A DNA stretch of 64,000 nt from a virus. Shown piece by piece: positions 4,428 through 49,374 of the stretch; position 1 is the first letter of the stretch, and every line of letters starts with the position of its first letter. The notes under the pieces were generated by a model, which was not told the origin of the DNA, did not search any database, and saw nothing but the letters and a program-made list of their open reading frames with translations. Made by a program: the position numbers and the translations under genes. The DNA is taken from IMG/VR virus record IMGVR_UViG_3300030103_004816; one strand, given 5' to 3'.

Positions 4428-4435
4428 TATTTATA
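4428..4435 (-). promoter_or_regulatory. gp55 late promoter TATAAATA
   Basis: Exact T4 late consensus, intergenic. Confidence 0.75.
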
Positions 4436-4444
4436 CTACTAGAA

Positions 4445-5059: not shown

Positions 5060-5071
5060 TATAAAATCCTA

Positions 5072-5584
5072 TTAACTATCAGCAAATTCTGTGTCGTCAC
5101 CGAGTGATCCATCACCTGATTGTTCACCTATATCACCTGAAATTCCGCCAGCTACAAGTACTTCAAATTGTACTCTTCCAGCTCTTCCACCTGAACCAGG
5201 CATTCTACGTACCCAACCAGTATGACCAGCGCCTTGTTGTACGCCAACCTCGTCAGTATCTACACCAAAGACAGCTTCAGGGTTACCTGAAATATTGCCT
5301 TTATGTACTTCTGATACTGTAAGTGATTTAGGTTTCTCAGATAATGCATATGCATTGGTAGCTCCAACAGCTGCGATAGTTCCACCTGCAGAACCTGCTA
5401 TGACTTGTGCAACTGTATTTGAAGTAATAGATGTTATTAAGAAATTATCATCGTTAGATACGATATAATCTCCTACTCTAGCTTCTGTCTCAAACTTAGT
5501 TGATGACCCAGTCACTAAGCCGTTAGCAGCAATAGTTACTGTTCCTGTTGATGCTTTATCGTCTTTGTTTCCCCAAAGTGCCAT
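5072..5584 (-). CDS. Probable virion structural protein (MALWG family)
   Basis: MALWG start, HTGWV...GRVQFEVLVA motif, G/A/T-rich. Confidence 0.55.
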   Translation of the reverse strand: MALWGNKDDKASTGTVTIAANGLVTGSSTKFETEARVGDYIVSNDDNFLITSITSNTVAQVIAGSAGGTIAAVGATNAYALSEKPKSLTVSEVHKGNISGNPEAVFGVDTDEVGVQQGAGHTGWVRRMPGSGGRAGRVQFEVLVAGGISGDIGEQSGDGSLGDDTEFADS

Positions 5585-5606
5585 ATCTTTCTCCTATATG
5601 TTCTAT

Positions 5607-6089
5607 TTATCTAGACCTACTAATCAAGTGCCTTAATAAATCAAGTTTATCAGAACTCTTAGTTAAATCTTCTCCTAATTCTTTCTTACGTTTTGCAACA
5701 AGCTTTTCTATTTCTTTTTTAGACATGTTGCCGCCTTTAACTTCGATGTAATCCTCTACACCTTCTTTATTCATTCTTTTCATTCTATCTAGACCTTTAA
5801 ATCTTTTTTCTTGTCTAGCGTTTATTTCTTTTTCTGGATAGCCTTTATGTCTAGCATTTTCTCCAGTTTGAATGTCGTCTTTTGCTGCTCTTTTATATCT
5901 CTTCATTAAATCAGGAGATAATTCTTGTAACTCAGTCTCTTCAACTCTTATAGAACTAGCGCCAGATTTTCTTAGTTGTTCTTGCTTCTTAGCAAGTTCA
6001 TCTTCATTTCTAGCATATCTATAAGTTCTTCTTCCATCTGCTGTTACAGCTGCTATTTTTTTAGGTGTGTCAAATGCTTCTTTTATCAT
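5607..6089 (-). CDS. Charged modular protein, putative internal head protein
   Basis: Contains LQELSPDLMKRYKRAA...KRFKGL module. Confidence 0.5.
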   Translation of the reverse strand: MIKEAFDTPKKIAAVTADGRRTYRYARNEDELAKKQEQLRKSGASSIRVEETELQELSPDLMKRYKRAAKDDIQTGENARHKGYPEKEINARQEKRFKGLDRMKRMNKEGVEDYIEVKGGNMSKKEIEKLVAKRKKELGEDLTKSSDKLDLLRHLISRSR

Positions 6090-8254: not shown

Positions 8255-9247
8255 TTATTCTTCATAAATGAAGTTTTTGTTCTTTTTTATGTCTTCTAAT
8301 AATGGTTTAAAATGATTTTTTATTTTATTTTCTACCCAATGTGTAGCATCATTATTATAAAAATATTGTTCTATCCAAGCATCTCTATCATAAAATAGTC
8401 TTTGTTTCTCAAGAGAAAGCTCATCAATATAATAAGACATATTTTTAGATGGATCTTTGCTAAAATCTAATAAAGCTCTTGCGAGCCATTTATGTCCTTC
8501 TTCTGTAAAATGCTTCAAGTCATTGCTAACCCATTCATTTTTATTTCCTAATCCTTTTGCTAATTGTAAAGCAAAACCAGTACAACCCCACATTTCTATA
8601 GTATCTTCAAATGTTGCATAATGAGGATGTCTTTTAACAAAGTTAAAGTTTTTTAGTTTTGGAGATGGCCAGTTAAAGATATATTTCTCATAATCTATTG
8701 ATTTAAAAAGATCATAAACTTCATCATCAATTTTACTTATAAATTTAAACCAGTTATAATTATCTTGAGTTATAATAGTTAAGTCCATGTTAAACTTTTT
8801 AGCTAATGTTATTAAGTTATGAATAATAGCTAGAGTTTTAAACGTTCCTCCAACCCATAAAGGAACATGTACATTAGGATCTGAAGGATTAGCTTTACTA
8901 TAAGTAAATTTAGTTGATAAGCCTCTATATTGTTTTTCAGGATCTATTTCAAAACCATTTGCAAACCTTTCACTATGAGAAAGATATAATATAACTTTAG
9001 TATGATTCTTTATTATCTTATTAAAGTAAATCATAAAGCTAGTAAAAATTGAATCATTACTTCTTGCTATTTCAGAGTTATTAATAAAAGGTAAGGCACA
9101 GTACTCATGATGGTTTCCGTTCTGATTTTGATGACCATCTACAGGGTTTGATTCCGGATTAATCTGAAGAGGCCAAGCATAAGCTTGAGACTCTACATCA
9201 TGTCCTTTAGTATAAGAACATCCATCAAAATAGAATTTAAGACTCAT
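8255..9247 (-). CDS. SGNH/GDSL hydrolase-like protein
   Basis: YFDGCSYTKG block I, SNDSI block, DLKHF catalytic DxxH. Confidence 0.6.
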   Translation of the reverse strand: MSLKFYFDGCSYTKGHDVESQAYAWPLQINPESNPVDGHQNQNGNHHEYCALPFINNSEIARSNDSIFTSFMIYFNKIIKNHTKVILYLSHSERFANGFEIDPEKQYRGLSTKFTYSKANPSDPNVHVPLWVGGTFKTLAIIHNLITLAKKFNMDLTIITQDNYNWFKFISKIDDEVYDLFKSIDYEKYIFNWPSPKLKNFNFVKRHPHYATFEDTIEMWGCTGFALQLAKGLGNKNEWVSNDLKHFTEEGHKWLARALLDFSKDPSKNMSYYIDELSLEKQRLFYDRDAWIEQYFYNNDATHWVENKIKNHFKPLLEDIKKNKNFIYEE

Positions 9248-9971
9248 ATAAAAATCCTGTTTGTAAAATATTTTTAACTACTCCGCCTAAAAATTTACTA
9301 GATTCCTGTTTAACTTGATAAGTATCCATATTGTTTCGTAGATACATTATAATATTTTCTCTACAATAATCTAAATTAGGTTTATTACCAGTCCCTAACC
9401 AGTTTATTATATCTTTATAAAGTTGAAAGTTAGCATCATTTCCTAAATGAGAAAAGTTATTTCTTAAATCTTTATTTTGAGCTCCGTAAATAGTAATCAA
9501 GCTATGAAGAAGCCAGCTATGTTCCTCTCTATCTAGCATGACATTACTGTTAAACCATTTCTCTTCTGGGAGGCTATCAAAGCAATAAGCTGGTTCAACA
9601 GTTATAAATTTAAAATCTAAATTATGTTTATCGCTATAGTCACTTAAACATTTGATATATCTCTCAGTATTTCTTCTAGTTTCAAATAGATAATTATTAT
9701 TATATGAGCCGTCTTTGTTTATTACATGGCTTCCAAATGCTAAATGTCTTGTTCCTTTATCTGTTTCTACTTCTTGTCTGTCACTATAAGTAAACATAAC
9801 TAGATAGCAATCGTGCTTATTTAATTGCATTGCTTGATAAGTATCGTGAAAAATTGAGATATTTGATTTGCCTGAATAGGCATTTATAGTTTTATTTTTT
9901 AGATGATGAGACCAACTAATATGGTCTTCCCAGTCGCAAGCAAAGCTGCAACCGTCTACATAATATTTCAT
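9237..9971 (-). CDS. SGNH/GDSL hydrolase-like protein (paralog)
   Basis: YVDGCSF, GKSNISI, FSHLG. Confidence 0.55.
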   Translation of the reverse strand: MKYYVDGCSFACDWEDHISWSHHLKNKTINAYSGKSNISIFHDTYQAMQLNKHDCYLVMFTYSDRQEVETDKGTRHLAFGSHVINKDGSYNNNYLFETRRNTERYIKCLSDYSDKHNLDFKFITVEPAYCFDSLPEEKWFNSNVMLDREEHSWLLHSLITIYGAQNKDLRNNFSHLGNDANFQLYKDIINWLGTGNKPNLDYCRENIIMYLRNNMDTYQVKQESSKFLGGVVKNILQTGFLYES

Positions 9972-9974
9972 AAT

Positions 9975-12377
9975 TTATTTTTTCTTATTTCTACCCTTTC
10001 TCATATTAAGTAACCAATGAGCCAGCTGTTTTTTTCTAGGAGAAGCTGAGTCACTTGATCTAACTTTTTTAAGAGATGAGGTAGATTGCTTTCCACTTAA
10101 TCCATGTCTTTTAGAGTCGCCTTTGTCTTGGGGATTTTTTCCGTCTTTAAAATTTTCTTTAACGCAGTTAGGTACTATTTTTTTACCTTTCTTTTTCATT
10201 CCTTGCTGCTTCCAACCGTCCCAGCATTTCTCATCGACTCTTTCTTCAGTTTTAACGTTAATAGGTTTACCACCTTTACCTGGTCTATCTGCTACTGGAT
10301 CTTGTCTTCTTTTTCTTCTAGCTGCTTTACCTCTATCTGCTTTAGACATAGAGTGAGCTTTTGATTGAGGAAGGCACTTAGGTTTGCCCTCACCTGGCTC
10401 TCTTGCGCAATCACCTTTAATATTGCCTTTGGTATCCATACGGACCCATTTATCTTTAAACCAATCTCTTAGATCTTCAGACGCTAGACTTTTTTTTTCT
10501 AATATAAGAGTTTGTAATTGATTAATTACTTTATCTTCTGTAGTTGATGTAACGTTAGGAGCAGTTTTTTTATTTTTAACTCCTCCATATTTCTTGACGT
10601 GTTTACCACCAGGTAAAAAGTCAGATTTTATTTTACCTGTATCTTTATTCTGTCTATAATCAGGAAATCTATTATCAGCCTTTGACTTTTTAATCTTAGT
10701 CTCTAATGAATCATCCTTTTTATATAAATCTTGTTGTTGATCTTTTTTGAATGGAGAAGGCTTATATCTTTGTTGACGACCGAATTGTAGGTTCACTCTT
10801 TTTCTTTGTATTCCTCTTTTAGGTTTTTCAGAATCAAACTCAGCTTCACCTAATTTTTTTTGAGCTTGCCTAATACCAAGCCCTCTCTTCATAACCTTTT
10901 TAGTAGCAGAAGCAGCTCTAATACTTTCACCTCTTTTGCTCTCTTTTTCCATCTTATCAATGTTATGAAGTCTTTCTGCTTGCGCTTTACCTACATACGA
11001 CTTAAGAGTGGATTTATCTAGTTCGTTTATAAAATTTTCTTCCATGTTACTAACATGTCTATGAATATCATTTGCAATTGTTTTATGATCATCTTTCGAT
11101 AAATGTGGGTTATGATTTTTAACAGCTTTATGAATTGCTTTTTTATCAGATTTATGATCAGTAGTTGTATAGCTATGACCTGATGGATGCTTTCCAGAGA
11201 AAGTTAGACCTCCTCTGTCACCGCCTTGATGGAGCTCGTGACCATCAGAAGCATGACCTGACTTAGAATAATCTGCACCTGTTCTAGCATATTTAAACTC
11301 TTTTTTTCTTTGATCTTCGTTTATATCTTTCATATGGTTATCATATTGCTTAGAACCTTTACCATATTCTTTTTTGATACGTCTTCTTTCTTCTTCATGA
11401 CCTCGTTTAAAACTACTTGAATTTTTATACCCTTCTTTACCATACTTAGACATTTTATCTTTTTTGAATTCATCGTAAGATCCTTCACCTAAGTCTTTTT
11501 TTATTTGATCTCTGTCCCATTGCTTACCTTTTGGAAGACCTTTATTTTCTTCTTTTCTTCTATTAGCAGCATCTTTGTTATATTTCTTAAGAAAGTCCAT
11601 AGATTTTTTCTTTTGTTCTGGGGTACTATGATCGGCACTAAATTTACCTTTACTCATAAGATATCTATTAGATGCTTTCTTAAACTCATCTGAAGTTTTC
11701 TTTAATTTACTTACAGCGTCACCTAATCTTTTCATTTCAGATTCATTAGCTAATTTTCTATTCTTATCGCCTTGAGCAACCTTAGCTAATTTTCTTTTTC
11801 CTGCTTCACCAGCTGACATACCTTTAGGTCTCATTTGATGTTTTACATTATCACCTGGTACTCTTTCTTCTTTATTAAGACTTTTTGATAAAGACTTTTG
11901 AAATTGACCTATCTTTCTTGCTCCGGCTGAGAATGTTAATTTTTCATTTCTCTTTTGTTTTTCTGCAGCTTTTTTATATTCTGGATCTCTATGATCATCA
12001 TGCTTTGTATAAGCCGAATGAGTGTTTATTCGTCTTTGCTTTGCAACTTTATTAATTAAATCTGTTGAAAGCTCATTTATATTTTCTTCGTTTTGAGCTA
12101 GTTTAGTAGCTGTAGCATACATAACTGCTTCATGATCTCTTCCATATCGTTTCATAAAGTCAGTCTTATTTTTCTTCATACCCTTAACAATATCTTCTCT
12201 GTCTCTTTTTTCAGCCGCTGAAAGTCTTGACTCAGCATTATAATGCTTTGCCATTTGATTCATTTCTTTATTTGATGGAGCTTTATGCTTGTAAAGCTTT
12301 TTCATATCAGCTTCAGCTCCAGGTGGATATTCTGATTTAGTCTTTTTATTAAGTAGACCTTTAAGATTTTTTGGCAT
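9975..12377 (-). CDS. 800-aa Lys-rich modular protein, putative internal head polyprotein
   Basis: Concatenated cassettes: RYGRDHEAVMYATATKLA, INELSTDL, INELDKSTLKSYVGKA, LRDWFKDKWV...KPKCLP, KCWDGWKQQGMKKKGKKIVPNCVKE. Confidence 0.55.
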   Translation of the reverse strand: MPKNLKGLLNKKTKSEYPPGAEADMKKLYKHKAPSNKEMNQMAKHYNAESRLSAAEKRDREDIVKGMKKNKTDFMKRYGRDHEAVMYATATKLAQNEENINELSTDLINKVAKQRRINTHSAYTKHDDHRDPEYKKAAEKQKRNEKLTFSAGARKIGQFQKSLSKSLNKEERVPGDNVKHQMRPKGMSAGEAGKRKLAKVAQGDKNRKLANESEMKRLGDAVSKLKKTSDEFKKASNRYLMSKGKFSADHSTPEQKKKSMDFLKKYNKDAANRRKEENKGLPKGKQWDRDQIKKDLGEGSYDEFKKDKMSKYGKEGYKNSSSFKRGHEEERRRIKKEYGKGSKQYDNHMKDINEDQRKKEFKYARTGADYSKSGHASDGHELHQGGDRGGLTFSGKHPSGHSYTTTDHKSDKKAIHKAVKNHNPHLSKDDHKTIANDIHRHVSNMEENFINELDKSTLKSYVGKAQAERLHNIDKMEKESKRGESIRAASATKKVMKRGLGIRQAQKKLGEAEFDSEKPKRGIQRKRVNLQFGRQQRYKPSPFKKDQQQDLYKKDDSLETKIKKSKADNRFPDYRQNKDTGKIKSDFLPGGKHVKKYGGVKNKKTAPNVTSTTEDKVINQLQTLILEKKSLASEDLRDWFKDKWVRMDTKGNIKGDCAREPGEGKPKCLPQSKAHSMSKADRGKAARRKRRQDPVADRPGKGGKPINVKTEERVDEKCWDGWKQQGMKKKGKKIVPNCVKENFKDGKNPQDKGDSKRHGLSGKQSTSSLKKVRSSDSASPRKKQLAHWLLNMRKGRNKKK

Positions 12378-34121: not shown

Positions 34122-34886
34122 TTAACTAATCTCATGTTTCGAGACAGCTAGACTCCAATCAAAGGAATCAACATAAGGTATAGGATCCTTATGACCTGCC
34201 TTTATAAAATTCATTACTCTTTCAGCACATGAAGGACATGTACCGCATGACTTATCTCCATCAGGATTATAGCATGTTATAGTACTAGAAAGCAACTCTA
34301 ATTTACCCATATCTTCAGCTATTTCAATTTCTTGCTTTTTACTTAGCTGACTAAAAGGAGCTACTATTTCTACTTTAAAGGTTCTATTCTGACTAGCAAC
34401 TGCATTAAGACTATCTACAAACTTCTGAGACGTATCCCAATAACCATATTCATCATGAACTTGCAGCCCAGTAAAGACATGAGAAGCTTTAGCAACTTCT
34501 GCTACTGACATAGTTAAAGATAACATAATCAGATTTCTAAAAGGTACATAGGTAGGTGGCTGCGGGTCGCCAAGGACGTCTTTTATATCTGGCATTTCCA
34601 CGCTTGTGCCACCTATGTTCGCTGACATAGGTTTAGCTATATCGCCAAGAATACTTAAGTCAAGTATCTTATGACGTATACCAAGTTTGTTACATAGTTC
34701 AAAAGCTTTCTCTAACTCTACTCTCTGCTTCTGACCATAATCATAACTTACAGCAGATACTCTATCTTTACCATATTTTTCTACTAGCATCATAGTCATA
34801 ACAGAAGAATCAAGTCCTCCTGAAAGTACTGCTAATACATTCTGATTAGTATCAGGTAAATTATTTAAAGCTTCAGTTAGATTCAT
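34122..34886 (-). CDS. queC: 7-cyano-7-deazaguanine synthase
   Basis: SGGLDS, YGQK, TYVPFRN, TCY...CGTCPSC. Confidence 0.95.
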   Translation of the reverse strand: MNLTEALNNLPDTNQNVLAVLSGGLDSSVMTMMLVEKYGKDRVSAVSYDYGQKQRVELEKAFELCNKLGIRHKILDLSILGDIAKPMSANIGGTSVEMPDIKDVLGDPQPPTYVPFRNLIMLSLTMSVAEVAKASHVFTGLQVHDEYGYWDTSQKFVDSLNAVASQNRTFKVEIVAPFSQLSKKQEIEIAEDMGKLELLSSTITCYNPDGDKSCGTCPSCAERVMNFIKAGHKDPIPYVDSFDWSLAVSKHEIS

Positions 34887-35076
34887 TTAGTACCTTTATT
34901 CCCATTACATAATTTTCTGCTGCATTCTCTGCCCATATCTCTGCTTTACCAGGATATGTTTCCTTTGCAACTTCTTTTCCGTCTATAAAAAATACAGCTC
35001 CATAACAACCATTCTCTACGAAAGTTCTAGCTGTTTTTTCACCGTCCATATATTCACTTAAAAATGTTTCGCTCAT
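34873..35076 (-). CDS. Hypothetical protein
   Basis: Coupled ORF, AENAAENYVMG motif. Confidence 0.6.
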   Translation of the reverse strand: MSETFLSEYMDGEKTARTFVENGCYGAVFFIDGKEVAKETYPGKAEIWAENAAENYVMGIKVLNESN

Positions 35077-36008
35077 TATTGCCTCGCTGTTTTTCTATGA
35101 GGTATATCTGCCTCAACTAAAGTAGAAGCTATCTTATCTATTAGATCTTGCGAAGTAGCTCTGATAGGATTAATATCTATACCACCTCTTCTAGTATATA
35201 AGCATGCTACTAATATTTCAGTATCATCTTCTAATATATCTCTTAGTCTTTTAAATATACACTCACATATTTCCTCATGGAAATGATTCTCTTTTCTCAT
35301 ACTAACTATATACTTCATAAGAGATTCAGGAGTAACACAATCTTCTCCTTCTATATGAATATATACATCACCCCAATCAGGCTGGTTAGTAATTCTACAA
35401 TTAGATCTTAATGCACTAGATGTAACCTGAAAAGGCATAAAGCCAAGCATAGGAGCATGCTCTAGTATTTTAGGATCTTCTTCGTATTCAACAAATTCTA
35501 TATCATCTTGTTCTATAAGAGACTCTAATCTAACAAAGTGACCTTTGATAGGAGCAGCAGGTAGTTCATTCTCATCATCATAATGGAACCAAACATCTAC
35601 ATCACACTCTAAAGCATCTCTTAGATCATCTTCTATCATTTGCTTAGCTTTGACTATAGCTCTAGTTAAACTATTACCAAACCTATGCATATTAAATGAG
35701 TTAAGATATAACTTTAACGATTTAGATTCAACTATACATTCACTATCAGACGGGTATACTATTTTTACTACACCGCTAACAGGGAATCCATTATCTAATA
35801 AAAATGATACTTCGTAACAGTTCCAGGTATCAAAACCTACAAACGGTAAATCATCTTCATTAATATTATATTCTTCTCTATTAAGTACTCTTGGTACCGG
35901 AACAAGCAAGCTTTTATCAGCTCTATCAGGAGTAACATAAGGCTTAACTATAGAGCCGTCTCCTGCTTTACCTAAATGTTTACTAACAATTTTATCTAAT
36001 TTTTTCAT
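35076..36008 (-). CDS. queF: NADPH-dependent preQ0 reductase (bimodular QueF)
   Basis: ESKSLKLYLNSF QueF motif, SNCRITNQPDWG, HFHEE, YTRRGGIDINP. Confidence 0.95.
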   Translation of the reverse strand: MKKLDKIVSKHLGKAGDGSIVKPYVTPDRADKSLLVPVPRVLNREEYNINEDDLPFVGFDTWNCYEVSFLLDNGFPVSGVVKIVYPSDSECIVESKSLKLYLNSFNMHRFGNSLTRAIVKAKQMIEDDLRDALECDVDVWFHYDDENELPAAPIKGHFVRLESLIEQDDIEFVEYEEDPKILEHAPMLGFMPFQVTSSALRSNCRITNQPDWGDVYIHIEGEDCVTPESLMKYIVSMRKENHFHEEICECIFKRLRDILEDDTEILVACLYTRRGGIDINPIRATSQDLIDKIASTLVEADIPHRKTARQ

Positions 36009-36532
36009 TTTATTACCTTCATTATTTGATCTAGTCTTTCTCTAACAGATCCAGATACTCTAACTATCTCTCTAGGCATTTCACTAATATAGCCTTCAAA
36101 TAATTCTACTATCTCATCTCTAAAGCTAGGATCAATTGATCTCACACCATCATCTACTATTTTAAACTCAGGTGGTATATAAAATATATAATCATATTCA
36201 TGTATAATCTTATCGTAGATAGCTTTTACTATATCAAGAGTATCTTTACTAACCTTTTTATGTAGATGTAAATAAGCAGTATATACTAATCCATCTAAGG
36301 CAGTTCTATCAGTTAACATATCATTATACATGAATACATTGAATACATGCTTTTGCATGATTAGTTCTTGCGTTAAGTCAGAACCAGCTTCATTTATATC
36401 TAGTCCTAATTTAATAAGCTCTCGAGTCACTTCATCGCATATAGCATACGTCTTAAATTTTTTCTCAGACCTTAACGCGTTAAGTAAAGTAGTCTTACCT
36501 ACTGATTGAGCACCAGTTATTCCTATCTTCAT
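36005..36532 (-). CDS. P-loop nucleotide kinase (AAA_28/NadR-like)
   Basis: GAQSVGKTT, DRTALD, DDGVR. Confidence 0.8.
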   Translation of the reverse strand: MKIGITGAQSVGKTTLLNALRSEKKFKTYAICDEVTRELIKLGLDINEAGSDLTQELIMQKHVFNVFMYNDMLTDRTALDGLVYTAYLHLHKKVSKDTLDIVKAIYDKIIHEYDYIFYIPPEFKIVDDGVRSIDPSFRDEIVELFEGYISEMPREIVRVSGSVRERLDQIMKVIK

Positions 36533-37038
36533 ACTTTACCTATCAAAAATGATGACCATAAATTTATAGCCAGTTGTCTTAATTCTTCTATCAAATCTTT
36601 CTCACTTATACCTTTCTTAATATCATGAACAGCTACCATTTGAGTCTCACCAGTATCTACACCTTCATCTACTTGATGAATAACAACACCAGTACTATCT
36701 AAGCCTAACTCTAAAGCTTTCTTCTGAGGATCTTTACCTCTTAGTTCAGGATACTTAATAGTATCACCAGGATGAACGTTATACATAGTCTTAGATATAG
36801 CAGCTTCAGGTACAATTCTATTATAACCATGCAAGGTTACAAAAGGATCATCGTCAGCGCAAGCAATTAACCAATCATGTATATCTTTTGCTTCCATATA
36901 AGATACTTTACTTCTTAAACGCTCATCAATTTTAGTAACTTCAAATTGATTAGTAACTATATGATCAGGCTCTTTACCTAACGTATCTATAACTGAAGCT
37001 AGTTCGCTTCCTGAATGACTAAAAATTGCTACCCACAT
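36529..37038 (-). CDS. PurN-like formyltransferase (candidate DpdN)
   Basis: FSHSGS, LHGY, NVHPG, GVVIHQVDEGVDTG. Confidence 0.85.
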   Translation of the reverse strand: MWVAIFSHSGSELASVIDTLGKEPDHIVTNQFEVTKIDERLRSKVSYMEAKDIHDWLIACADDDPFVTLHGYNRIVPEAAISKTMYNVHPGDTIKYPELRGKDPQKKALELGLDSTGVVIHQVDEGVDTGETQMVAVHDIKKGISEKDLIEELRQLAINLWSSFLIGKV

Positions 37039-37823
37039 ATATTTTCTCTAAACTTTAACATATTATAGAATACACTATACTGATGTTCAACCTTTTCTTC
37101 CATTAAAGTAAACAATTTAACTGACTCTTTATCATTTAAACCAAATACTCCATCTTCTAATTCTTCGTACTTAATATTTTTCATACCATGCACTACAGGA
37201 TTAGAAGTATCAATAGTATCAATCCAGTCATACTCTTTATATGCTGTAAACTCCTGAGGTAAACCAGCTCCTAATAGATGATGATCTTTCTCAGTGTTTA
37301 TTATATTCTTATCTAACATATCACTAAGTAATTTTTGCCTACCTTTCATCCATGATACGTATTTATTCTCTTCATCAGGAAATAAATCTTCATAATAACT
37401 ATAGTCAAATGATATAGCAATTATATCTGCATTTTCATTCATATAATTATAGCATTCGATTATTTCATCCCAATCTTTACCTTGAACAACACCAATTTTG
37501 AGACCTGGTAAGTCTTTATATCGTTCCATCCATGAACTAAAGTTCTTAATTGTTGTATCTTTCTGTTCCAATGCATCTGGTACGATATAAGCAGAAGGTT
37601 TTAATTGCTTTATCCAAGCAGCAAACTCATCCGCATTGAAAGCCTCACCAAGCTCAAAAATTGAATTATCAAGAATAGTATATCTACCTTTCTTTTTAGC
37701 TTCTACGAAGTGATTATAGTATGCAGGAAGTTCTTCAAAAAGATGAACTAATGCATAATCATAGTCAGTACTTTCACTGACCTTATCGATTATATCTAAA
37801 GGTGCTTCGTGGGCTATTCTCAT
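37029..37823 (-). CDS. TGT/DpdA-like TIM-barrel protein (candidate DpdA3-type)
   Basis: ILDNS, VPD, GVVQG, HLLG, IDTS motifs in TGT order; located inside que cluster. Confidence 0.7.
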   Translation of the reverse strand: MRIAHEAPLDIIDKVSESTDYDYALVHLFEELPAYYNHFVEAKKKGRYTILDNSIFELGEAFNADEFAAWIKQLKPSAYIVPDALEQKDTTIKNFSSWMERYKDLPGLKIGVVQGKDWDEIIECYNYMNENADIIAISFDYSYYEDLFPDEENKYVSWMKGRQKLLSDMLDKNIINTEKDHHLLGAGLPQEFTAYKEYDWIDTIDTSNPVVHGMKNIKYEELEDGVFGLNDKESVKLFTLMEEKVEHQYSVFYNMLKFRENICG

Positions 37824-38062
37824 TCGAAATAATTTTCTACTATATCTACTAGTTCTTTGTATTCAGCTATTTGTTTAAACTCATGCTCTAAAGAAGACAT
37901 TATATCAGGATGGTCAGCTACACCAACTTGCTTTTGTAATAATACTTCTACATTCAAAACGTGCTTAGAGATATTAGCTGTAAATAATTGTTTACTAGCT
38001 GATAGTAATTCATCTCTAAGATCTACTTTATTAACCTCTACAGGTTTCTGTTCAATACTCAT
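37820..38062 (-). CDS. Hypothetical protein
   Basis: NVEVLL...VGVADHPDI motif. Confidence 0.65.
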   Translation of the reverse strand: MSIEQKPVEVNKVDLRDELLSASKQLFTANISKHVLNVEVLLQKQVGVADHPDIMSSLEHEFKQIAEYKELVDIVENYFE

Positions 38063-38802
38063 TATCCTTTTCCTCCAGCATACTGCTGTTGTAGCATGAT
38101 ATCATCGAAGAACTCCTTCTTAACATCAGCATCATTAAATCTACCTTTGAGTACGGTAGTCTGGGTTAGAGAAGAATGAGCCATAATACCTCTATTCTCA
38201 CAACAACCATGAACTGCATGAATATAAACAGCTAGGTCTTCAGTCCCAGTTGCAGCTTGCAGCTCTTTTACAATTTCATTACATAATTGTTCTTGCAAAG
38301 TACCTCTTCTAGCTACCCATTGAGCTATTCTAGTATACTTTGATAATCCTATAACCATTTTATCAGGTATAATACCAATATAAGCTATACCTACTACAGG
38401 TTGATGATGATGAGAGCACATAGATCTAAGTTCAGATCTTACTACTAACATTCCATCATACTTATTATCATCTTCATTAGGGAATGCAGTAGCAGCAGGC
38501 TTCTCAAAATAACGACCTCTCATTAGCTCGTTAATATACATCTTAGCTAAACGTCTAGGAGTACCCATAGCATTAGGATCGTTCTTCCAATCAATAAGTA
38601 ATCTAGTAAGCACTTCTTCAAATGCTTCCGATACTTCGTCTATAAGTTTATCTCTACCAGACTCGGTAAGAATTTCTGCTATATTATCATTAGACCAGGC
38701 TCGTAAGCCTTTCTCTTTTATCATCTTCCAATATAGCTCATGTACTTTATTATCAGTCATAGCTGTATTATAACCTATTTGCTTATCACTTTCAACTGTC
38801 AT
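38062..38802 (-). CDS. folE: GTP cyclohydrolase I
   Basis: TPRR, SMCSHH, GLSK..R, LQE, HGC...RG. Confidence 0.96.
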   Translation of the reverse strand: MTVESDKQIGYNTAMTDNKVHELYWKMIKEKGLRAWSNDNIAEILTESGRDKLIDEVSEAFEEVLTRLLIDWKNDPNAMGTPRRLAKMYINELMRGRYFEKPAATAFPNEDDNKYDGMLVVRSELRSMCSHHHQPVVGIAYIGIIPDKMVIGLSKYTRIAQWVARRGTLQEQLCNEIVKELQAATGTEDLAVYIHAVHGCCENRGIMAHSSLTQTTVLKGRFNDADVKKEFFDDIMLQQQYAGGKG

Positions 38803-39250
38803 TTGGTTCTCTCCTATAAATAGCTGAATTAGCACCATGCTCCATTACTTCACAAGATACACAATAGCATCTTCCACCTGATTTTCTTTCGACTACTTCA
38901 TTAGCTTTTACCCATGCATGATATGCAAACTTTTCGCATCCTACTCCATCCATAATAACTATGTCTATTAGTCCTTTTTTATCTAATAATATAAAATCAT
39001 CCATAGCTGGATCATCTTTATCTACAGCAGTCTTATGATCAAAATTATCTTTAAGCCATTTTTTTAGCTCTCCTAGATCACCAAAATCAACTGCCCAGTT
39101 CTTATTATCTAATTCTGTAGCCGCAAAGACAAACCTAAATGCTAAAGCATAACCATGTATAAGACTACAATGACTATGCGTAGCATTAGGCTGTCTGAAA
39201 GCACATGAGAGGCCTGACTCATGCCCGTATGTTTTTGTACTTAAATACAT
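38792..39250 (-). CDS. queD: 6-carboxytetrahydropterin synthase
   Basis: HCSLIHGY, VDFGDL, FDH, GCE. Confidence 0.92.
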   Translation of the reverse strand: MYLSTKTYGHESGLSCAFRQPNATHSHCSLIHGYALAFRFVFAATELDNKNWAVDFGDLGELKKWLKDNFDHKTAVDKDDPAMDDFILLDKKGLIDIVIMDGVGCEKFAYHAWVKANEVVERKSGGRCYCVSCEVMEHGANSAIYRREPNDS

Positions 39251-39622
39251 CTATGCTCCTATAATGTAAATTATTAATGCGTAAGTTAAAAAATGTAGAT
39301 ACTGATCAACGCCTTGAAGTATCCAATAATATGTTTGACTATCAGTTAGTTTATATTTTTTCCATATATTACTTTTTACGTAATCAATATGGTAATGAAT
39401 AACACCATCTATTATAGCTAATATAACTGCTAAAAAGTTACTTACTAAAAAAGGTATTAAAACTAACGCTGTTCCTATAGCGTGTGAGCTCGCATGAGCT
39501 ATTCCACCAGGTGCTCCATATTCAGATTTATCTCTTATCATCCACATACGTTGCAAAAAATAATCCGCTATAGTATGCTTAAGCATTAATAAAATAAATA
39601 CTAATAATAATTGTTCATACAT
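39251..39622 (-). CDS. DUF3307-like membrane protein
   Basis: H..ADY.LQ, H...H, HYHIDY.K, DQYLH. Confidence 0.8.
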   Translation of the reverse strand: MYEQLLLVFILLMLKHTIADYFLQRMWMIRDKSEYGAPGGIAHASSHAIGTALVLIPFLVSNFLAVILAIIDGVIHYHIDYVKSNIWKKYKLTDSQTYYWILQGVDQYLHFLTYALIIYIIGA

Positions 39623-39624
39623 AA

Positions 39625-40095
39625 TCACTTGTCCTCCCACCAGAACTTATACCAGCTCTTCTCCTTTGAGCGTTGTATAGATAGGTCAAAAAAATCAACC
39701 ATCAGTTCTTGATCTGAATTATAAATTAAAGAAGCAATACTTATATTATCTTTAGGAAAATCGCCCCAAGATTCAAAGAGCGTTTTGATAGTTTGACCTG
39801 AGTCAACTATATCATCTATTATAAGATACTTTGCTCCATTATTCAAGTCTTCTGGTATCCATTCTACTATTTCTTTTTCACCAGAATCCCTCGTTGACCA
39901 TACTAAAGGTGTTACTGGTATATCTAACTTATGAGATAGAAACACTGCAGGTATTAAACCACCTCTAGATAATCCTATTATTCTACTATAAGGACTTCCT
40001 ACAGCCATTATATTGTTGTATATCTTTTCGATACCTTCTTCAAACGCTTCATGACCGTAAACGATCTCTTTCTTTTTAAACATAATATTACTCAC
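39625..40095 (-). CDS. Purine phosphoribosyltransferase (Gpt-like)
   Basis: GLSRGGLIPA, LIIDDIVDSGQT PRPP motif, FWWE terminus. Confidence 0.9.
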   Translation of the reverse strand: MSNIMFKKKEIVYGHEAFEEGIEKIYNNIMAVGSPYSRIIGLSRGGLIPAVFLSHKLDIPVTPLVWSTRDSGEKEIVEWIPEDLNNGAKYLIIDDIVDSGQTIKTLFESWGDFPKDNISIASLIYNSDQELMVDFFDLSIQRSKEKSWYKFWWEDK

Positions 40096-41113
40096 TTAAA
40101 AATTTTACTCTGTCTCCAAATCCTTTAATTATTTTTAATTCCTCTAAAGGTTTGTGGTTATCACCTCTCTTCTCATCATCTGCATAGTGATGTTCAGTTC
40201 TATCCCACCAATCGAAGCCATGGAGCCAGACTTCATAATTCTGTTTTAAATAATAATCTATTGCTATAAGACCAGTACTTGGAGCTTTTAGCCCGTAGTA
40301 GTTAAAGTCTTCTATTTTATGAACCACTTTTCTTCTATCAGTTAATTTTTTAAATAGATCACATTCATTTTCATTAAACCAGCTATGGCAAATGACATTA
40401 TCAAATTCATTAATATCTTCTATATGTTTATCCATGCAAGTAAACCATACATTAGTTTTACTGCCTGTATACTTTTCGTATCCTTTAGTAGTAAAAGAAT
40501 TAAATCTTACTACTTCATCAAATGAATCTATTTCTTCTCCTAACTCTTTATCAAGAATAGAAGTTCCGTTACCTACTAATAAAACTTTCTTTTGTTTAGT
40601 ATACCAAGTAACTAATACTAATCTTTTTCCTTTAGTAACTTTACTTACACTATGAAATACATTATGTTCATATTCAATAGTCTCACCAACTTCTTGTTTA
40701 ACTATTACAGGTATAATTGGATCACCTGGAGTATAATCACCGTCTCTATATCTATTAAGTACATCAGGAGTAACATCCCAATCAAGCTTATAGTGAGGTT
40801 CGTAAATTATAATATCACCACCCTCTAGGTCTTCTACATCTACTAATGTAATAGCAGTTTTAAATATCTCATCATTATTATCCGTATGAAGTCTAGTAAA
40901 AGAGTTTACTGGATACTCTAAAAAATATTGAGAGTATATGCTAAATCCATCTCTATTGAATTCTTGCATCCAATTATCTCTAGGTATATCTGCTTTATAG
41001 AGATAATGCAAATTATAATATCTTTTTACTTTCTGTTTTTCAAGACTATTATATAAGTTTTTTAAAACTTCAATATCTACAGGTGTACTTACTTGCTTAT
41101 AATAATCAGACAC
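40088..41113 (-). CDS. Fusion of 2OG-Fe(II) oxygenase and GT29 (sialyltransferase-like) domain
   Basis: HTD...GG...HSVSKVTKGKRLVLVTW, then VGNG...LGEEIDSFDEVVRFN...GSKT, PSTG, GFD, HY...H. Confidence 0.8.
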   Translation of the reverse strand: MSDYYKQVSTPVDIEVLKNLYNSLEKQKVKRYYNLHYLYKADIPRDNWMQEFNRDGFSIYSQYFLEYPVNSFTRLHTDNNDEIFKTAITLVDVEDLEGGDIIIYEPHYKLDWDVTPDVLNRYRDGDYTPGDPIIPVIVKQEVGETIEYEHNVFHSVSKVTKGKRLVLVTWYTKQKKVLLVGNGTSILDKELGEEIDSFDEVVRFNSFTTKGYEKYTGSKTNVWFTCMDKHIEDINEFDNVICHSWFNENECDLFKKLTDRRKVVHKIEDFNYYGLKAPSTGLIAIDYYLKQNYEVWLHGFDWWDRTEHHYADDEKRGDNHKPLEELKIIKGFGDRVKFLSE

Positions 41114-41993
41114 CTATTAGGTTCCCCCATAAGTAAGTATGTACTCTAGCTGATACATTATAACCTCTCTGAAATGCTTCTTTAGCTACATCACCATCAC
41201 ATAGCTTCTGACCTTCTACTGTAGCTCCTACAGGCATAATCCATATAGGCCAATCTACATGATAGTCTCTAAACATCTCTATAGTTTCTTCTAACTCTTT
41301 CCAAGTTTCTGGTTTGCCATCAACAACAAATTTAAGCTGACCTCTATTAGTAAACATCTGATATCGTTCTACTACTTCAGGTCTTATAGCTCTTTTTCTT
41401 AGCTCACCAGATACATTATGTAATTTAGGACTGCATGATATAAATAGTTCACTGCCCCATACATCTCTATACTCCTGCCAGAACTCTATTACTTCAGGTC
41501 TTATAGTTTGAGTACCATTAGTTTCATAAGTAACATACCTAGGATAATCTCGTTCTTCTATCCAATGCTTCATCATATTCATACTACATATTTGAGCATG
41601 CTTCATAAAAGGTTCACCACCAGTAAAACACATATGTCTTTCACCCCATCTACCTTTATTATATTTGTTAGTAAACGCATCTCTTACTTTATTAGCTATT
41701 TCTACAGCAGTACCATTATGAGTTAAATGCTTAAATTTTTTAGACCATGAATAAGAACTATCACAGCCAAATTCCCAGACGGGTAAATCTTCCATACGAT
41801 TAACTTCTATTATATCAAAGTCTTTATATGGTAGTTTATAAGTAGAAGGATCAGTAGGGTCATCTTGACCGAAACCATTACATTGTAAGTTACATAAAAA
41901 GAATCTTAACCATGCGGTAGGATATCCAGTATAATGACCTTCACCTTGAATAGAATCAAATATTTCAGAATAAGCGTATGTTTGTTCGCTCAT
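41106..41993 (-). CDS. queE: 7-carboxy-7-deazaguanine synthase (radical SAM)
   Basis: EIFDSIQGEG, CNLQC...CDS, TGGEP, ETNGT, SPKL, RVH. Confidence 0.94.
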   Translation of the reverse strand: MSEQTYAYSEIFDSIQGEGHYTGYPTAWLRFFLCNLQCNGFGQDDPTDPSTYKLPYKDFDIIEVNRMEDLPVWEFGCDSSYSWSKKFKHLTHNGTAVEIANKVRDAFTNKYNKGRWGERHMCFTGGEPFMKHAQICSMNMMKHWIEERDYPRYVTYETNGTQTIRPEVIEFWQEYRDVWGSELFISCSPKLHNVSGELRKRAIRPEVVERYQMFTNRGQLKFVVDGKPETWKELEETIEMFRDYHVDWPIWIMPVGATVEGQKLCDGDVAKEAFQRGYNVSARVHTYLWGNLIGV

Positions 41994-42526
41994 AGTTCCT
42001 CTTTAATTTGTTTAACCCAATCCATTATTCTAAACGGAGAGAGTGTTGGTTCGTTATCTTCATCTATAGCTAATCCATAAAAGGTGTTCTCATCTTTAAG
42101 TCCGTTAGACTTATCAAATTTAAAACCTTGAGTAGAAGTTAGCCCTATCAACCTTCCGCCATTCTTTAAAACTACTTCAGCTAACATACCTAATCCATCT
42201 ACAAAATTATCTGCATACCCTACTTGGTCTCCTAGACCATATAAAGCAACAGTTTGTCCGGTAAAATCTATCTTGCTAAATCTTTCATAAGATTCATTCC
42301 AATCATCAGAATATTCGCCATAAGTATCTAGTCTTGGTTCACACCAAGTTGGAGTTCCAAGTATAAGCAAGTCAGCTCTCCAATCATCAGGAGAGGTATG
42401 ATCTACTTTTACTAGGGAATATGTTTTAGGTTTGAAATGAGTTATTATATCTTCACCGATTGACTTAGTAAAGCCAGTTTCAGTACCATATATTAACTTT
42501 AAATTTATCTCGGACTTGAGATCCAT
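41990..42526 (-). CDS. fldA: Long-chain flavodoxin
   Basis: GTETGFT, GTPTW, GLGDQVGYADNFVDG, GLAIDEDN. Confidence 0.93.
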   Translation of the reverse strand: MDLKSEINLKLIYGTETGFTKSIGEDIITHFKPKTYSLVKVDHTSPDDWRADLLILGTPTWCEPRLDTYGEYSDDWNESYERFSKIDFTGQTVALYGLGDQVGYADNFVDGLGMLAEVVLKNGGRLIGLTSTQGFKFDKSNGLKDENTFYGLAIDEDNEPTLSPFRIMDWVKQIKEEL

Positions 42527-42531
42527 ATAAG

Positions 42532-42567
42532 CTCCTAGTTTTATTTAAAATGTGGAAGGGCACATTT
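42532..42567 (-). promoter_or_regulatory. Leader hairpin with A-rich tail, reminiscent of preQ1-I riboswitch
   Basis: AAATGTG-CCCTTC-CACATTT-TAAATAAAACTAGGAG directly upstream of flavodoxin-queE. Confidence 0.35.
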
Positions 42568-42573
42568 GATATT

Positions 42574-43098
42574 CTATTTAGCTAATCTAGCTGCCTTCTT
42601 TATTAATCTTAATACTTTTTTCCATTTACGTTTAAATCTTTCTAAATGTATAGGATGAGCACGAGTAAAATATTCAATTCCATTTAGGTGATCTAACTCA
42701 TGCTGAAAAACTCTTGCGGCCATACCATCAAACTTTTTAGTACAGACATTCCCATATGGGTCTTTAAATCTTACCCTAATAAATCTTGGTCTTTTTATTT
42801 TTACATAAACACCAGGATAGGATAAACATCCTTCATCCATAGTTATATCTTCTTCGCCGAAGTATGTTATAACCGGATTATAGCAAACCATAGGAGGTTC
42901 TGAATACATACAAAACACTCTTGCTTGTACTCCTATCTGGTTAGCCGCAAGCCCTACACCCTTACCATCTTTCATAGCATTTATAAGTGTATGAGATAAC
43001 TCAACTGGGTCAGTAGAAGGGTTATCAAAATCAAAGTCAGGCATCACTGCTCTGAGCATATCATTATTATCACCTATTGGTATTATAGTTTTACTCAT
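42574..43098 (-). CDS. def: Peptide deformylase
   Basis: GVGLAANQIG, EGCLS, QHELDHLNG. Confidence 0.95.
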   Translation of the reverse strand: MSKTIIPIGDNNDMLRAVMPDFDFDNPSTDPVELSHTLINAMKDGKGVGLAANQIGVQARVFCMYSEPPMVCYNPVITYFGEEDITMDEGCLSYPGVYVKIKRPRFIRVRFKDPYGNVCTKKFDGMAARVFQHELDHLNGIEYFTRAHPIHLERFKRKWKKVLRLIKKAARLAK

Positions 43099-46796: not shown

Positions 46797-48264
46797 TTAA
46801 TTTAACCTGATATATTTTATAATCAAACTTCTCGTCGTTATAATATTTTATTCTTTCCGCGCTATGTTGTAAAGTATAGTTACGTCTCTTACCATGTGAA
46901 AGGTCATCAGAGATATCGAATAGAGTAGCCTTGTCTTTAGTATCAGAAGTTCTTAAACCTCTACCTATAGATTGTAGTACTCGTATTTTCGACTTAGACG
47001 GAGACGCAAAGATAATATTATTTAGGTTACGTATATTAATACCTGTTGAGAAGGTACCATACGAAGCAACTATGACAGCGTCTTTCTCATCTTCGACTAC
47101 TGATCTAATATTTTCTCTTATCTTAGCGTTTACTTCACCACTTACAAAGAAAAACTGTCTATCAAATAAGTCTTTCTTTTGTTGTTCTATTAAGTTATTA
47201 TATAATACTTTCCCGTGTTTTTCAACTAGTTGAAATAATACTAGAGTATTACCTTTCATAGATAGTATTAAGTTCTGAATAAATTTAGCTCTTGCTTCTG
47301 AATTAACTATATAGTCCATCTCTTCTTGATAAGTAGATTTTTTAAGTAGAGCACATTCTGATTTAGGATATGATAAAGCAATACATTTTATTTTAAGATC
47401 AGCTAAGGTACCTTTATCCATTAGTTCTTTTGAAGTAGTAACTTTTTTAACTGCACCAAATAAGCCTTCCAATACTAACTTATGAGTCATAGTACCATCT
47501 AATGTTCCAGTAAAGCCATATCTATACTCACAATCTTCTAGTTTAGTCATAATAGAAGTCAAAGACTTAGACTTAAAATTATGAGCTTCATCTCCCATAA
47601 CACACTTAAATTGATTGAACCATGGCTTAGGCATTTTATATATAGACTGCCAAGTAGATACTACTATATCTTCTATAATATCATTACGCCAAGACTTATC
47701 TTGTGTACCATCAATAACTCTTATATTATTTTCATATCCATATGACTTAAAATCAGATTGCATTTGATATACTAGCGAAGTAGTAGGAACTATTACTAAT
47801 ATTTTTTTCTTTGTCTCTATCATCTTCTTAGCTAGAAGATATATGATTAATGATTTACCTGAAGCGGTAGGTGATAGAAGTAAAGCTCTTCTAGTTCTCA
47901 TAGCATGAGCAAAAGCTTCTACTTGATAATCTCTTGGTTCTAAATTAGTTGCTTGTTTACAGAAGTCGTATGCTTCTTTTACTGAATAACTATCATCATG
48001 CAACTCATCATCTAAGTCTACTTCATAATCTCTATCATAAGCAAACTTTCTTATGTAAGGAGTTAAGCCAGCATATAATCTTTGAGTAGCTACGTTAAAT
48101 AATCTTATCTTACCATCCCAGAATTTATTTCTAACCTGGGGCATAAATTTAGCATTAGGTATTGTAAACGTAAAATATTCTTGCAGCTCATATGCAATGC
48201 CTGGTTCACAATCAACTTTAACGTATGCTTCGTTAAACTTTTCTACGAATATTTTCTCTGTCAT
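46789..48264 (-). CDS. uvsW: SF2 helicase UvsW
   Basis: PRDYQ, SPTASGKS, DEAH, QSIGRGLR. Confidence 0.96.
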   Translation of the reverse strand: MTEKIFVEKFNEAYVKVDCEPGIAYELQEYFTFTIPNAKFMPQVRNKFWDGKIRLFNVATQRLYAGLTPYIRKFAYDRDYEVDLDDELHDDSYSVKEAYDFCKQATNLEPRDYQVEAFAHAMRTRRALLLSPTASGKSLIIYLLAKKMIETKKKILVIVPTTSLVYQMQSDFKSYGYENNIRVIDGTQDKSWRNDIIEDIVVSTWQSIYKMPKPWFNQFKCVMGDEAHNFKSKSLTSIMTKLEDCEYRYGFTGTLDGTMTHKLVLEGLFGAVKKVTTSKELMDKGTLADLKIKCIALSYPKSECALLKKSTYQEEMDYIVNSEARAKFIQNLILSMKGNTLVLFQLVEKHGKVLYNNLIEQQKKDLFDRQFFFVSGEVNAKIRENIRSVVEDEKDAVIVASYGTFSTGINIRNLNNIIFASPSKSKIRVLQSIGRGLRTSDTKDKATLFDISDDLSHGKRRNYTLQHSAERIKYYNDEKFDYKIYQVKLNV

Positions 48265-48661
48265 ATACTTTCTTTCTGAGGCTCGTAGTAGAGAAGTTAT
48301 GATCTCTATTATTAAAGTATAACTTTATGCCTCTTTTTTGGCAGATTTCTTTTCCAGTAAATTCTTTATTTCTATATTCATCACCTAAGATTCTAACATC
48401 AATAGGTAACATACTTATTATATCTAGTAGATCACTCTCAGTCACGTAAGGAATAATTTCGTCTACATAACTTATAGCTTGTAGTTGAGTATATCTTTCT
48501 ACTATTGTTTGAATTGGTTTATTTTTTTCTGCTCTATCTAGAGAAGGATCAACCTGTAATCCACATATTAGATAATCACATTGTGACTTAGCTTCTCTTA
48601 ACATAGCTATATGCCCAGCATGAAGTAAATCAAAAGCAGAACAAGTAAAGCCAGTTATCAT
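48233..48661 (-). CDS. tagD: Glycerol-3-phosphate cytidylyltransferase-like
   Basis: FDLLHAGH, YVDEII, RDHNFSTT. Confidence 0.85.
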   Translation of the reverse strand: MITGFTCSAFDLLHAGHIAMLREAKSQCDYLICGLQVDPSLDRAEKNKPIQTIVERYTQLQAISYVDEIIPYVTESDLLDIISMLPIDVRILGDEYRNKEFTGKEICQKRGIKLYFNNRDHNFSTTSLRKKVYDRENIRRKV

Positions 48662-49374
48662 TTATATTTCCTTGCTATCATATTGCTGCTTAGTACACCA
48701 GCAAATAAAGTATCGTCTGTAAGTGTCTGATAGTGAGTAGTATCTTTAGGTAAGCATTTACCACCAAAGCCAAACTTACCGTCAGGCCCAGGTACATCTA
48801 AATGAGTAGTAGGATCAATATTATTTTTAAGTAGCTCTTTAACTGTATAGTAATTAACATTATACTTATTACAATTATCATTTAGTATATTAGCATAAGT
48901 AACTTTCATACTTAGGAAGGCATTTCGTGACATTTTAAACATAGCAGCTTCTTTAGCTGTTACTTCTTTTACATCTACGAAACTTTTTAACCAAAAACTA
49001 AATGCACTAGAACCAGATTTACCAATAACGTTTTCTACTTCGGGTTGCGATAACTGATCTTCCCAAGTTATCTCTCTTAAAAATTCTGGCCACATAGTTG
49101 GTTCATCAAACTCATCTACTTGATCAGGTCCTATAGTTGATCTTATTATTTGTTCACCTTTCCATTTACCATACTCACTCTTAAGTATAGATATATCTAA
49201 TTTATTTCCGTCTAGGTTAGTAGGTAAACAATAAAATACAAAATCATATTCATAATCAGGAGCTTTAACTCCTTGATCAGGATCATGTAAATAAATTTCT
49301 AGATTTTTAAAGTTCTCTAGGTACTTGGTTGTTGCTTTACCAACGAAACCATTACCTATTATAACACAATTCAT
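48658..49374 (-). CDS. UDP-glucose/GDP-mannose dehydrogenase-like (short form)
   Basis: GNGFVG, LPT, RST, PEFL, GFGGKCLPKD. Confidence 0.88.
   Translation of the reverse strand: MNCVIIGNGFVGKATTKYLENFKNLEIYLHDPDQGVKAPDYEYDFVFYCLPTNLDGNKLDISILKSEYGKWKGEQIIRSTIGPDQVDEFDEPTMWPEFLREITWEDQLSQPEVENVIGKSGSSAFSFWLKSFVDVKEVTAKEAAMFKMSRNAFLSMKVTYANILNDNCNKYNVNYYTVKELLKNNIDPTTHLDVPGPDGKFGFGGKCLPKDTTHYQTLTDDTLFAGVLSSNMIARKYK

Follow-up and report, generated by a model that had tools for sequence, protein, structure and literature searches.

The 64,000-nucleotide (nt) stretch analysed here, from IMG/VR virus record IMGVR_UViG_3300030103_004816 (the window), encodes a protein of 341 amino acids (aa) in which a 2-oxoglutarate (2OG)-Fe(II) oxygenase is fused to a miniature GT29-like sialyltransferase domain, within an operon of que genes for 7-deazaguanine synthesis (Table 1). 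An earlier note on this DNA had proposed that the protein may hydroxylate and then glycosylate a modified base or a virion protein. The open reading frame (ORF) begins with GTG, has a GGGGGA Shine-Dalgarno-like run 9 nt upstream and overlaps the QueE stop by 8 nt. Its 3′ end abuts the gene of a Gpt-like phosphoribosyltransferase (PRTase), whose listed GTG start gives another 8-nt overlap and whose alternative in-frame ATG at 40083, the probable start, leaves a 4-nt gap; the gene had been described as overlapping both neighbours, which stands for queE and holds for the PRTase only with the GTG start. The fusion gene is probably translationally coupled to the que operon. Its two domains meet without a linker at residues ~171–176 (about nt 40585–40600), with the oxygenase ending at ~W170–Y171 and the transferase running from K176, and no signal peptide or membrane segment was found in the protein.

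The N-terminal half carries the Fe ligands H76 (40886–40888), D78 (40880–40882) and H154 (40652–40654) and the 2OG-binding R164 (40622–40624), and this H76-x-D78, H154, R164 set was invariant in 11 full-length fusion homologues and in 34 family members. Pfam Oxygenase-NA (PF09859) matched residues 15–168 at E = 8.7e-4 with 19.3 bits, under its cut-off of 26.2; PF13640 gave weak matches, in homologues only; and PHROG_61 (2OG oxygenase) matched at 1e-5. The fold is a double-stranded beta-helix (DSBH), with the best Z scores for 6n1f (16.4), OGFOD1 (15.6) and PiuC (15.5), further matches to vCPH (the PBCV-1 prolyl hydroxylase) and EF-Tu prolyl hydroxylase (both 14.9) and AlkB-type structures at ~13. 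No TET/JBP or KdoO structure was among the 50 best fold matches, and absence from this list does not exclude a family.

The C-terminal half matched Pfam GT29 (PF00777) at E = 1.9e-13 (50.9 bits against a cut-off of 23), although the match spans motif L only (residues 173–225; profile positions 53–105 of 272). Motif L lies at residues 177–227, motif S at 278–300, motif III at H308-H309-Y310 and motif VS from H320 (40154–40156) to E325 (40139–40141). All four are invariant in the 11 fusions, as LLVGNGxSILD...VVRFN (L), PSTGLIAI...HGF (S), HHYAD (III) and H320-x4-E325 (VS), and H320 and E325 stay unchanged across 45 family members. A C-half profile of 45 members matched pig ST3Gal-I from end to end (E = 3e-19), placing HHY on HHYWE and H-x4-E on VHDGDFE, and the same profile reached the bacterial GT42 family (lipooligosaccharide (LOS) sialyltransferases, Cst-II) at E ~ 1e-6. 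The domain has the GT-A variant fold of sialyltransferases with solved structures, and the closest was likewise pig ST3Gal-I (2wnf; Z 15.0, root-mean-square deviation 2.6, 164 aligned residues, 22% identity), followed by ST6GalNAc2 (6apj; Z 13.8) and by ST8SiaIII and ST6Gal1 (5bo8 and 4js1; Z 12.4). The C-half has no Cys at the sites aligned to RCAVVGN (motif L) and HICDEV (motif S) of ST3Gal-I, and it has no N-terminal transmembrane segment or stem, starting directly after the oxygenase. Having the motifs and fold of GT29 without its disulfide and topology, it is labelled here a GT29-like minimal core. Judging from its motifs, this core probably uses a cytidine monophosphate (CMP)-activated ulosonic acid as donor.

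AlphaFold2, run on an 84-sequence alignment, gave a mean local confidence (pLDDT) of 95.3 and a predicted template-modelling score (pTM) of 0.84. The fusion is one rigid two-domain enzyme in which both halves keep their catalytic residues, and by sequence it is apparently a competent bifunctional oxygenase-transferase. Because there is no linker, the inter-domain model is confident and both halves are conserved across 11 clusters, we infer that two steps are coupled in this enzyme, hydroxylation and then glycosylation.

An artefact can be excluded for the fusion. The full-length architecture (336–344 aa, 57–63% identity) recurs in ten further 90%-identity clusters of JGI, ENA and Logan origin, and the window's own 90%-identity cluster is present on three ~159 kb assemblies. 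Another fusion (P0005) lies in identical synteny in three loci (L001–L003), to which IMG/VR adds two more (L012 and L013), and near-identical DNA was found in runs of nine studies. Contigs from three DNA runs of three studies span the junction (~40595) without indels, which settles the concern in the earlier note that the join at ~40590 might be a sequencing error; a 160-nt contig from a metatranscriptome library (40464–40623) spans it as well, though DNA carry-over is possible there. Together with the ST3Gal-I profile match and fold Z scores of 15–16 for both halves, these bridging contigs rule out chance, and the profile searches, invariant catalytic motifs and fold matches bear out the assignment of both halves. 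Three candidates for further junction-spanning 2OG–GT29 fusions (P0135, P0164 and P0084) were rejected because their N-terminal parts are other domains. Among 50,697 cultured-phage records, neither megablast with the region nor tblastn with the protein gave a match at E ≤ 1e-5, and the fusion family is therefore unrepresented among isolates at that threshold. The nearest record, a 16.7-kb fragment (G001), also gave no match, and BFVD held no protein covering both domains (top query-normalised TM-score 0.41).

The window has a low GC content (~33%) and encodes gp46/gp47, gp55, UvsW, gp43, gp41, UvsX, gp20, gp23 and a T4-type terminase; it belongs to an uncultured marine T4-like myovirus. By UvsW, its nearest isolates are Methylophilales phage Melnitz and Pelagibacter phages Mosig and HTVC008M (50–54% identity). 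The genes around the fusion are all on the minus strand and run, in order, PDF, flavodoxin, QueE, the fusion, the Gpt-like PRTase, DUF3307, QueD, FolE, an 80-aa ORF, a 264-aa DpdA3, a PurN-like formyltransferase, an AAA_28 kinase, QueF, a 67-aa ORF, QueC, a 208-aa protein and a dUTPase/Dcd-fold protein. In Flavobacterium phage immuto, all G in the DNA is replaced by formyl-preQ1 (fdPreQ1) (PMC10516641). Because of the DpdA3 likeness and the gene set in common with immuto, the operon is most likely a DpdA3/DpdN-type system making fdPreQ1 (or preQ1) DNA; the placement of the fusion inside a que operon, as first noted, is confirmed.

Table 1 Features of the fusion gene, the surrounding operon and the cytidylyltransferase-like gene (coordinates in the window)
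Feature	Coordinates	Strand	Remarks
2OG-Fe(II) oxygenase + mini GT29-like transferase (fusion ORF)	40088..41113	(-)	341 aa
N-domain, DSBH oxygenase	40598..41113	(-)	Residues 1 to ~172; invariant residues, fold Z
C-domain, GT29/GT42-like sialyltransferase fold	40091..40588	(-)	Residues ~176–341; PF00777, profile, fold Z
Flavodoxin	41990..42526	(-)	Pfam
QueE-like radical-SAM enzyme (CDG synthase)	41106..41993	(-)	Stop overlaps fusion start
Gpt-like xanthine/guanine phosphoribosyltransferase	39625..40095	(-)	Probable ATG start 40083
DUF3307, small hydrophobic protein	39251..39640	(-)	
QueD / PTPS	38792..39250	(-)	
FolE, GTP cyclohydrolase I	38062..38838	(-)	
DpdA3-type DNA guanine transglycosylase	37029..37823	(-)	56.7% to Flavobacterium phage immuto_2-6A DpdA; also matches CP220, phiST
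DpdN-like PurN-family formyltransferase	36529..37038	(-)	43% identity to immuto YP_010114479 region
AAA_28 P-loop kinase	36005..36532	(-)	
QueF, two-domain type	35076..36008	(-)	
QueC	34122..34886	(-)	
CTP_transf_like PF01467 (RfaE-II/TagD-like)	48233..48661	(-)	Below every equivalog cut-off

Several neighbours deserve a remark of their own. The flavodoxin gene directly precedes and overlaps queE; its product is absent in the close relative L012 and 66% identical in L001, and it is plausibly a dedicated QueE reductant. NifU- and IscA-like proteins for Fe-S assembly are encoded in the window too. DUF3307 is probably membrane-embedded; its presence varies from one que cluster to another in this phage group, regardless of the GT29 fusion. 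The Gpt-like PRTase recurs in the deazaguanine clusters of phages whose G is reported to be fully replaced (immuto, phiST group) and in cyanophage BUCT-ZZ01. The AAA_28 kinase accompanies a PRTase in immuto and in marine loci, and among the downstream matches listed (up to eight within 5 kb) it was found only in clusters with both the 2OG oxygenase and the PRTase. The PRTase and kinase together suggest that guanine is salvaged or that the pathway branches at the level of nucleotides, outside the published schemes. No preQ1 riboswitch was found at 30–50 kb with Rfam (E ≤ 1), where the sole hit was a sub-threshold S15 leader at 38647–38744, and a riboswitch-like leader at 42527–42582 was not backed by Rfam covariance models.

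The two halves of the fusion have separate histories. An exhaustive search of 1.84 billion representatives returned 2086 matches, with both halves present in one 50%-identity cluster; the other matches were standalone oxygenases (~180 aa), standalone mini-GT29 proteins (~180 aa) and GT29-like domains on other modules. Comparing the proteins of the window's cluster with 120 loci, we found a standalone oxygenase (36–61% identical to the N-half) exactly between QueE and PRTase in at least 13 viral loci of related T4-like phages and in L011. This slot is kept even where QueE identity is 54%, FolE2 replaces FolE1 and the cluster is otherwise dissimilar, and in a maximum-likelihood tree of the oxygenase family the slot proteins and the fusions fell together on one side of a branch with support of 96/92. 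The GT29-bearing fusion was confined to the window's nearest relatives across these loci: the mini-GT29 was added to a long-standing slot oxygenase, and gained only in the window's sub-lineage.

The oxygenase also travels with the PRTase. Across 71 informative QueE-anchored loci, 24 had oxygenase and PRTase, 45 had neither, two had the PRTase only and none had the oxygenase only, and on the QueE tree the pair requires at least three joint gains or losses. In one clade with neither gene that is nested among carriers (L125 and L130), the gene overlapping the QueE stop encodes a 2OG oxygenase of a different family, PF13759 (L125, 5857–6435; L130, 5857–6441), which looks like a non-orthologous replacement. 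A GNAT-like acetyltransferase occupies the place of the PRTase in L125 (6619–7062).

The mini-GT29 belongs to a large family (hundreds of 50%-identity clusters, with Atlas clusters of 131–179 members), and the closest standalone copy (58–61% identity) lies between gp32 and UvsW in another T4-like phage. GT29-like modules are also fused to S-adenosylmethionine (SAM) methyltransferases (P0015, P0084) and to a GT2 domain (P0037), and a 492-aa fusion (P0014) adjoins proteins of 1355 and 1503 aa and a GT32. Because its contexts and fusion partners are so varied, we regard the module as a portable sugar-transfer domain. On 13 viral contigs (L094–L106), a standalone ~172-aa mini-GT29 gene belongs to a conserved block (for example, L094 7004–7516 and 7860–8951) that also encodes a GDP-mannose 4,6-dehydratase, two nucleases of the HNH endonuclease and ERCC4 types, and a ~272-aa protein that matched nothing in Pfam.

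Between the window and L001, the flanking proteins are 92–98% identical, against 54% for the N-half and 69% for the C-half of the fusion. Nucleotide identity drops from ~85–92% in the QueE and PRTase genes to 58–75% exactly at the borders of the fusion gene, and standalone oxygenases resemble the window's N-half (68% identity for P0045) more closely than the N-halves of other fusions do. This divergence island would be explained by an exchange of cassettes or by diversifying selection of the kind seen in phage–host conflict genes.

Our preferred reading, to which we give a probability of about 0.35, is that the target of the fusion is a deazapurine, as base, nucleotide or DNA residue, which is first hydroxylated and then glycosylated. 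It draws on the fidelity of the oxygenase to its slot, the monophyly of the slot subfamily, the unrelated oxygenase recurring in the same slot and the pattern in which the oxygenase is never seen without the PRTase. The oxygenase would then be an accessory tailoring enzyme of the deazaguanine pathway, acting on a deazapurine; in most related phages, a hydroxylated or otherwise oxidised product would be the end point, and in the window's sub-lineage the GT29-like domain would take the new hydroxyl as its acceptor. The sugar would come from a host-supplied CMP-activated ulosonic acid (3-deoxy-D-manno-octulosonic acid (Kdo) or a nonulosonate), with H320 as the catalytic base. The enzyme might act on the free base, on a nucleotide made by the PRTase or on the base already in DNA, and the pay-off might be one more level of hypermodification in the DNA as a defence against host nucleases, in keeping with the divergence island. 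A more specific product, a hydroxylated 7-deazaguanine in DNA or in the precursor pool that bears a CMP-derived ulosonic acid (of the Kdo, sialic, pseudaminic or legionaminic type), seems quite improbable. To our knowledge, it would be the first sugar-bearing 7-deazapurine in DNA and the first acidic keto-sugar on DNA, and its enzyme, one bifunctional protein added to the fdPreQ1 pathway, the first functional GT29-type enzyme of a bacteriophage.

Several observations weigh against a deazapurine substrate, beginning with the oxygenase itself, whose nearest folds are PHD/P4H/PKHD-type hydroxylases. OGFOD1, EF-Tu prolyl hydroxylase, the PBCV-1 collagen P4H and PHD2 are among its top matches (Z 14–16), and mimivirus lysyl hydroxylase (6ax6) and LH3 (8zgc) were matched at Z 12.4–12.8. 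These folds would fit a protein hydroxylase and O-glycosyltransferase whose target, from either the phage or its host, would be a virion fibre, a translation protein or a ribosomal protein, with Pro or Lys hydroxylated and the new hydroxyl then glycosylated, the logic of collagen LH3, mimivirus L230 and Skp1. The fusion proteins are mostly acidic (pI 5–6.7), an uncommon property in enzymes that hold duplex DNA (a weak argument) and one that would suit basic protein substrates. The large neighbours and GT32 of the P0014 fusion are in keeping with a protein target too, as are the mini-GT29 genes of L111 and L118, which lie between proteins of 867–1414 aa. However, likeness to the DSBH fold does not predict substrate class, no candidate substrate protein was found, and a protein target leaves unexplained both the confinement of the oxygenase subfamily between QueE and PRTase and the different-family oxygenase of L125 and L130. 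We consider it rather unlikely.

Further points against concern the slot. Position in the slot is by itself weak evidence because marine T4-like phages are full of 2OG oxygenase genes; the N-half matched dozens of cyanophage 2OG proteins in BFVD. Sister groups of the oxygenase hold other sites just as firmly (nrdA-2OG-nrdB and DUF932-2OG-JmjC-like), and adjacent genes are lost jointly whatever their function. Many que clusters have no oxygenase: QueE and PRTase occur without it in immuto, BUCT-ZZ01, L143 and L160 (in the cultured cyanophage BUCT-ZZ01, QueE is followed directly by the PRTase, a small ORF, QueD and FolE), in addition to the 45 loci with neither gene. In L056, three tandem PF13640 2OG genes lie between gp46 and QueE. 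All this would be expected of a generic 2OG accessory gene at a permissive junction, for which the GT29 fusion was a lineage accident and whose activities would have nothing to do with deazaguanine and perhaps nothing with each other, and the cassette-like gene with its sharp identity borders would be expected as well. Such an accident is hard to square with a linkerless fusion that is modelled confidently and conserved in both halves in all 11 clusters, or with a monophyletic slot subfamily that is kept across deep divergence while a second oxygenase family recurs in the same place; we regard it as unlikely.

The L056 que cluster, with its tandem 2OG genes (4327–6002 and 8389–10951), is itself divergent, with FolE2 in place of FolE1 and a 286-aa protein 21% identical to DpdA3. 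QueC and QueF were not found near it, but this 44.6-kb record is only 25% complete, so the absence of QueC is uninformative.

The mini-GT29 half supplies the remaining points against a deazapurine substrate. A que gene lay within 7 kb of a standalone mini-GT29 in none of 28 viral loci, and 13 of 29 standalone mini-GT29 genes adjoin a GDP-mannose 4,6-dehydratase, a glycan context. The sporadic insertion unlinked to que clusters that the earlier note had envisaged as the contrary case thus describes the transferase half and fails for the oxygenase half, whose que linkage is stable. The dehydratase neighbours, the module fusions to methyltransferases and GT2, which look like glycan tailoring, and the GT42 LOS sialyltransferases reached by the C-half profile would instead suit remodelling of the host envelope, in which a Kdo-type or nonulosonate sugar is added to and/or hydroxylated on lipopolysaccharide or capsule, perhaps as a barrier to superinfection. 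An analogue would be the pairing of the Kdo dioxygenase KdoO with a Kdo/sialyl transferase. An envelope role is very doubtful for this protein, which has neither an export signal nor a membrane segment and no link to glycan genes at its own locus, and it would leave the conservation of the oxygenase in the que slot unexplained.

A deazapurine substrate, still the reading we prefer, also has to account for the sugar donor, and it counts against it that no NeuA-, KdsB- or NeuB-like CMP-ulosonate gene is among the families listed for the window ORFs. The TagD-like cytidylyltransferase once suggested as the source of a cytidine-nucleotide donor cannot be upheld in that role: besides scoring below the equivalog cut-offs, its gene lies 7 kb from the fusion with six unrelated genes between, and the protein is equally present in relatives without the GT29 domain (L016, L022). 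The PF01467 family is not known to make CMP-ulosonates, whose synthetases belong to PF02348. Host-made CMP-Kdo or CMP-nonulosonate is the most plausible donor. A 140-aa gene beside a standalone GT29 in L008, considered as support for a donor link, is unrelated to the window's PF01467 protein. Next to the latter, at 48658–49374, a 238-aa protein matches only the central domain of UDP-glucose/GDP-mannose dehydrogenases, at about half the normal length, and its gene stays beside the cytidylyltransferase-like gene in relatives.

Set against characterised enzymes, the C-half has the same fold as GT29 (2WNF pig ST3Gal-I, ST6GalNAc2, ST8SiaIII) and GT42 Cst-II, with motifs L, S, III and VS aligning residue for residue, including the VS His and Glu. 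The phage domain, however, is ~170 aa rather than ~270 aa, has no stem and no motif L/S Cys pair, and is found fused to an oxygenase in a tailed phage. LH3/PLOD3 and mimivirus L230 likewise carry a hydroxylase and a glycosyltransferase on one chain, the glycosyltransferase decorating the new hydroxyl, and their hydroxylase folds are those matched above. They differ in having another glycosyltransferase family, and the phage fusion has no collagen-like context and lies in a nucleobase-modification operon; in LH3, the domain order is reversed relative to the phage fusion. The immuto cluster (PMC10516641) has DpdA3, DpdN, QueD, QueE, FolE, QueF, the PRTase and the P-loop kinase in common with the window, but only two small ORFs lie between its QueE and PRTase, and it has no oxygenase, no GT29 and no homologue of the fusion.

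Base J (JBP and JGT), phage TET enzymes with glycosyltransferases (PMC8256090) and the glucosylation of hydroxymethylcytosine in T4 also use an oxidised base carbon as a sugar handle. Those oxygenases, in contrast, are of the TET/JBP family, act on pyrimidines and are separate proteins, and the partner transferases use UDP-sugar donors, whereas the oxygenase of the fusion has a PHD/P4H/PKHD-like fold; the analogy drawn in the earlier note therefore probably extends to the two-step logic and stops there. Overall, the fusion would work like LH3/L230 or the base J and TET–glycosyltransferase pathways and is a member of neither. A literature search returned no description of bacteriophage GT29-type enzymes or of 2OG oxygenases in deazaguanine clusters, and the 2OG oxygenase–mini-GT29 architecture has no described counterpart.

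Bifunctional hydroxylase-glycosyltransferases act on collagen, and DNA pyrimidines undergo hydroxylation followed by glycosylation; for 7-deazapurines, nothing of either kind has been described. Working out what the fusion does would account for the retention of a 2OG oxygenase next to QueE across many marine T4-like phages, and it might add a new DNA hypermodification, with a bearing on restriction evasion and on the sequencing of marine viromes. The same work could reveal what the ~180-aa phage 'mini-sialyltransferases', a large and unstudied family, do, and even with a protein target, a minimal, soluble and disulfide-free sialyltransferase core would be useful to glyco-engineers.

Elsewhere in the window, a scan of the ORFs at 757–26719, with families recorded for the region and not assigned to individual ORFs, gave two more 2OG oxygenases (PF13759 and PF13640), a second CTP_transf_like protein, a staphylococcal-nuclease homologue and a DenV-like pyrimidine-dimer glycosylase.

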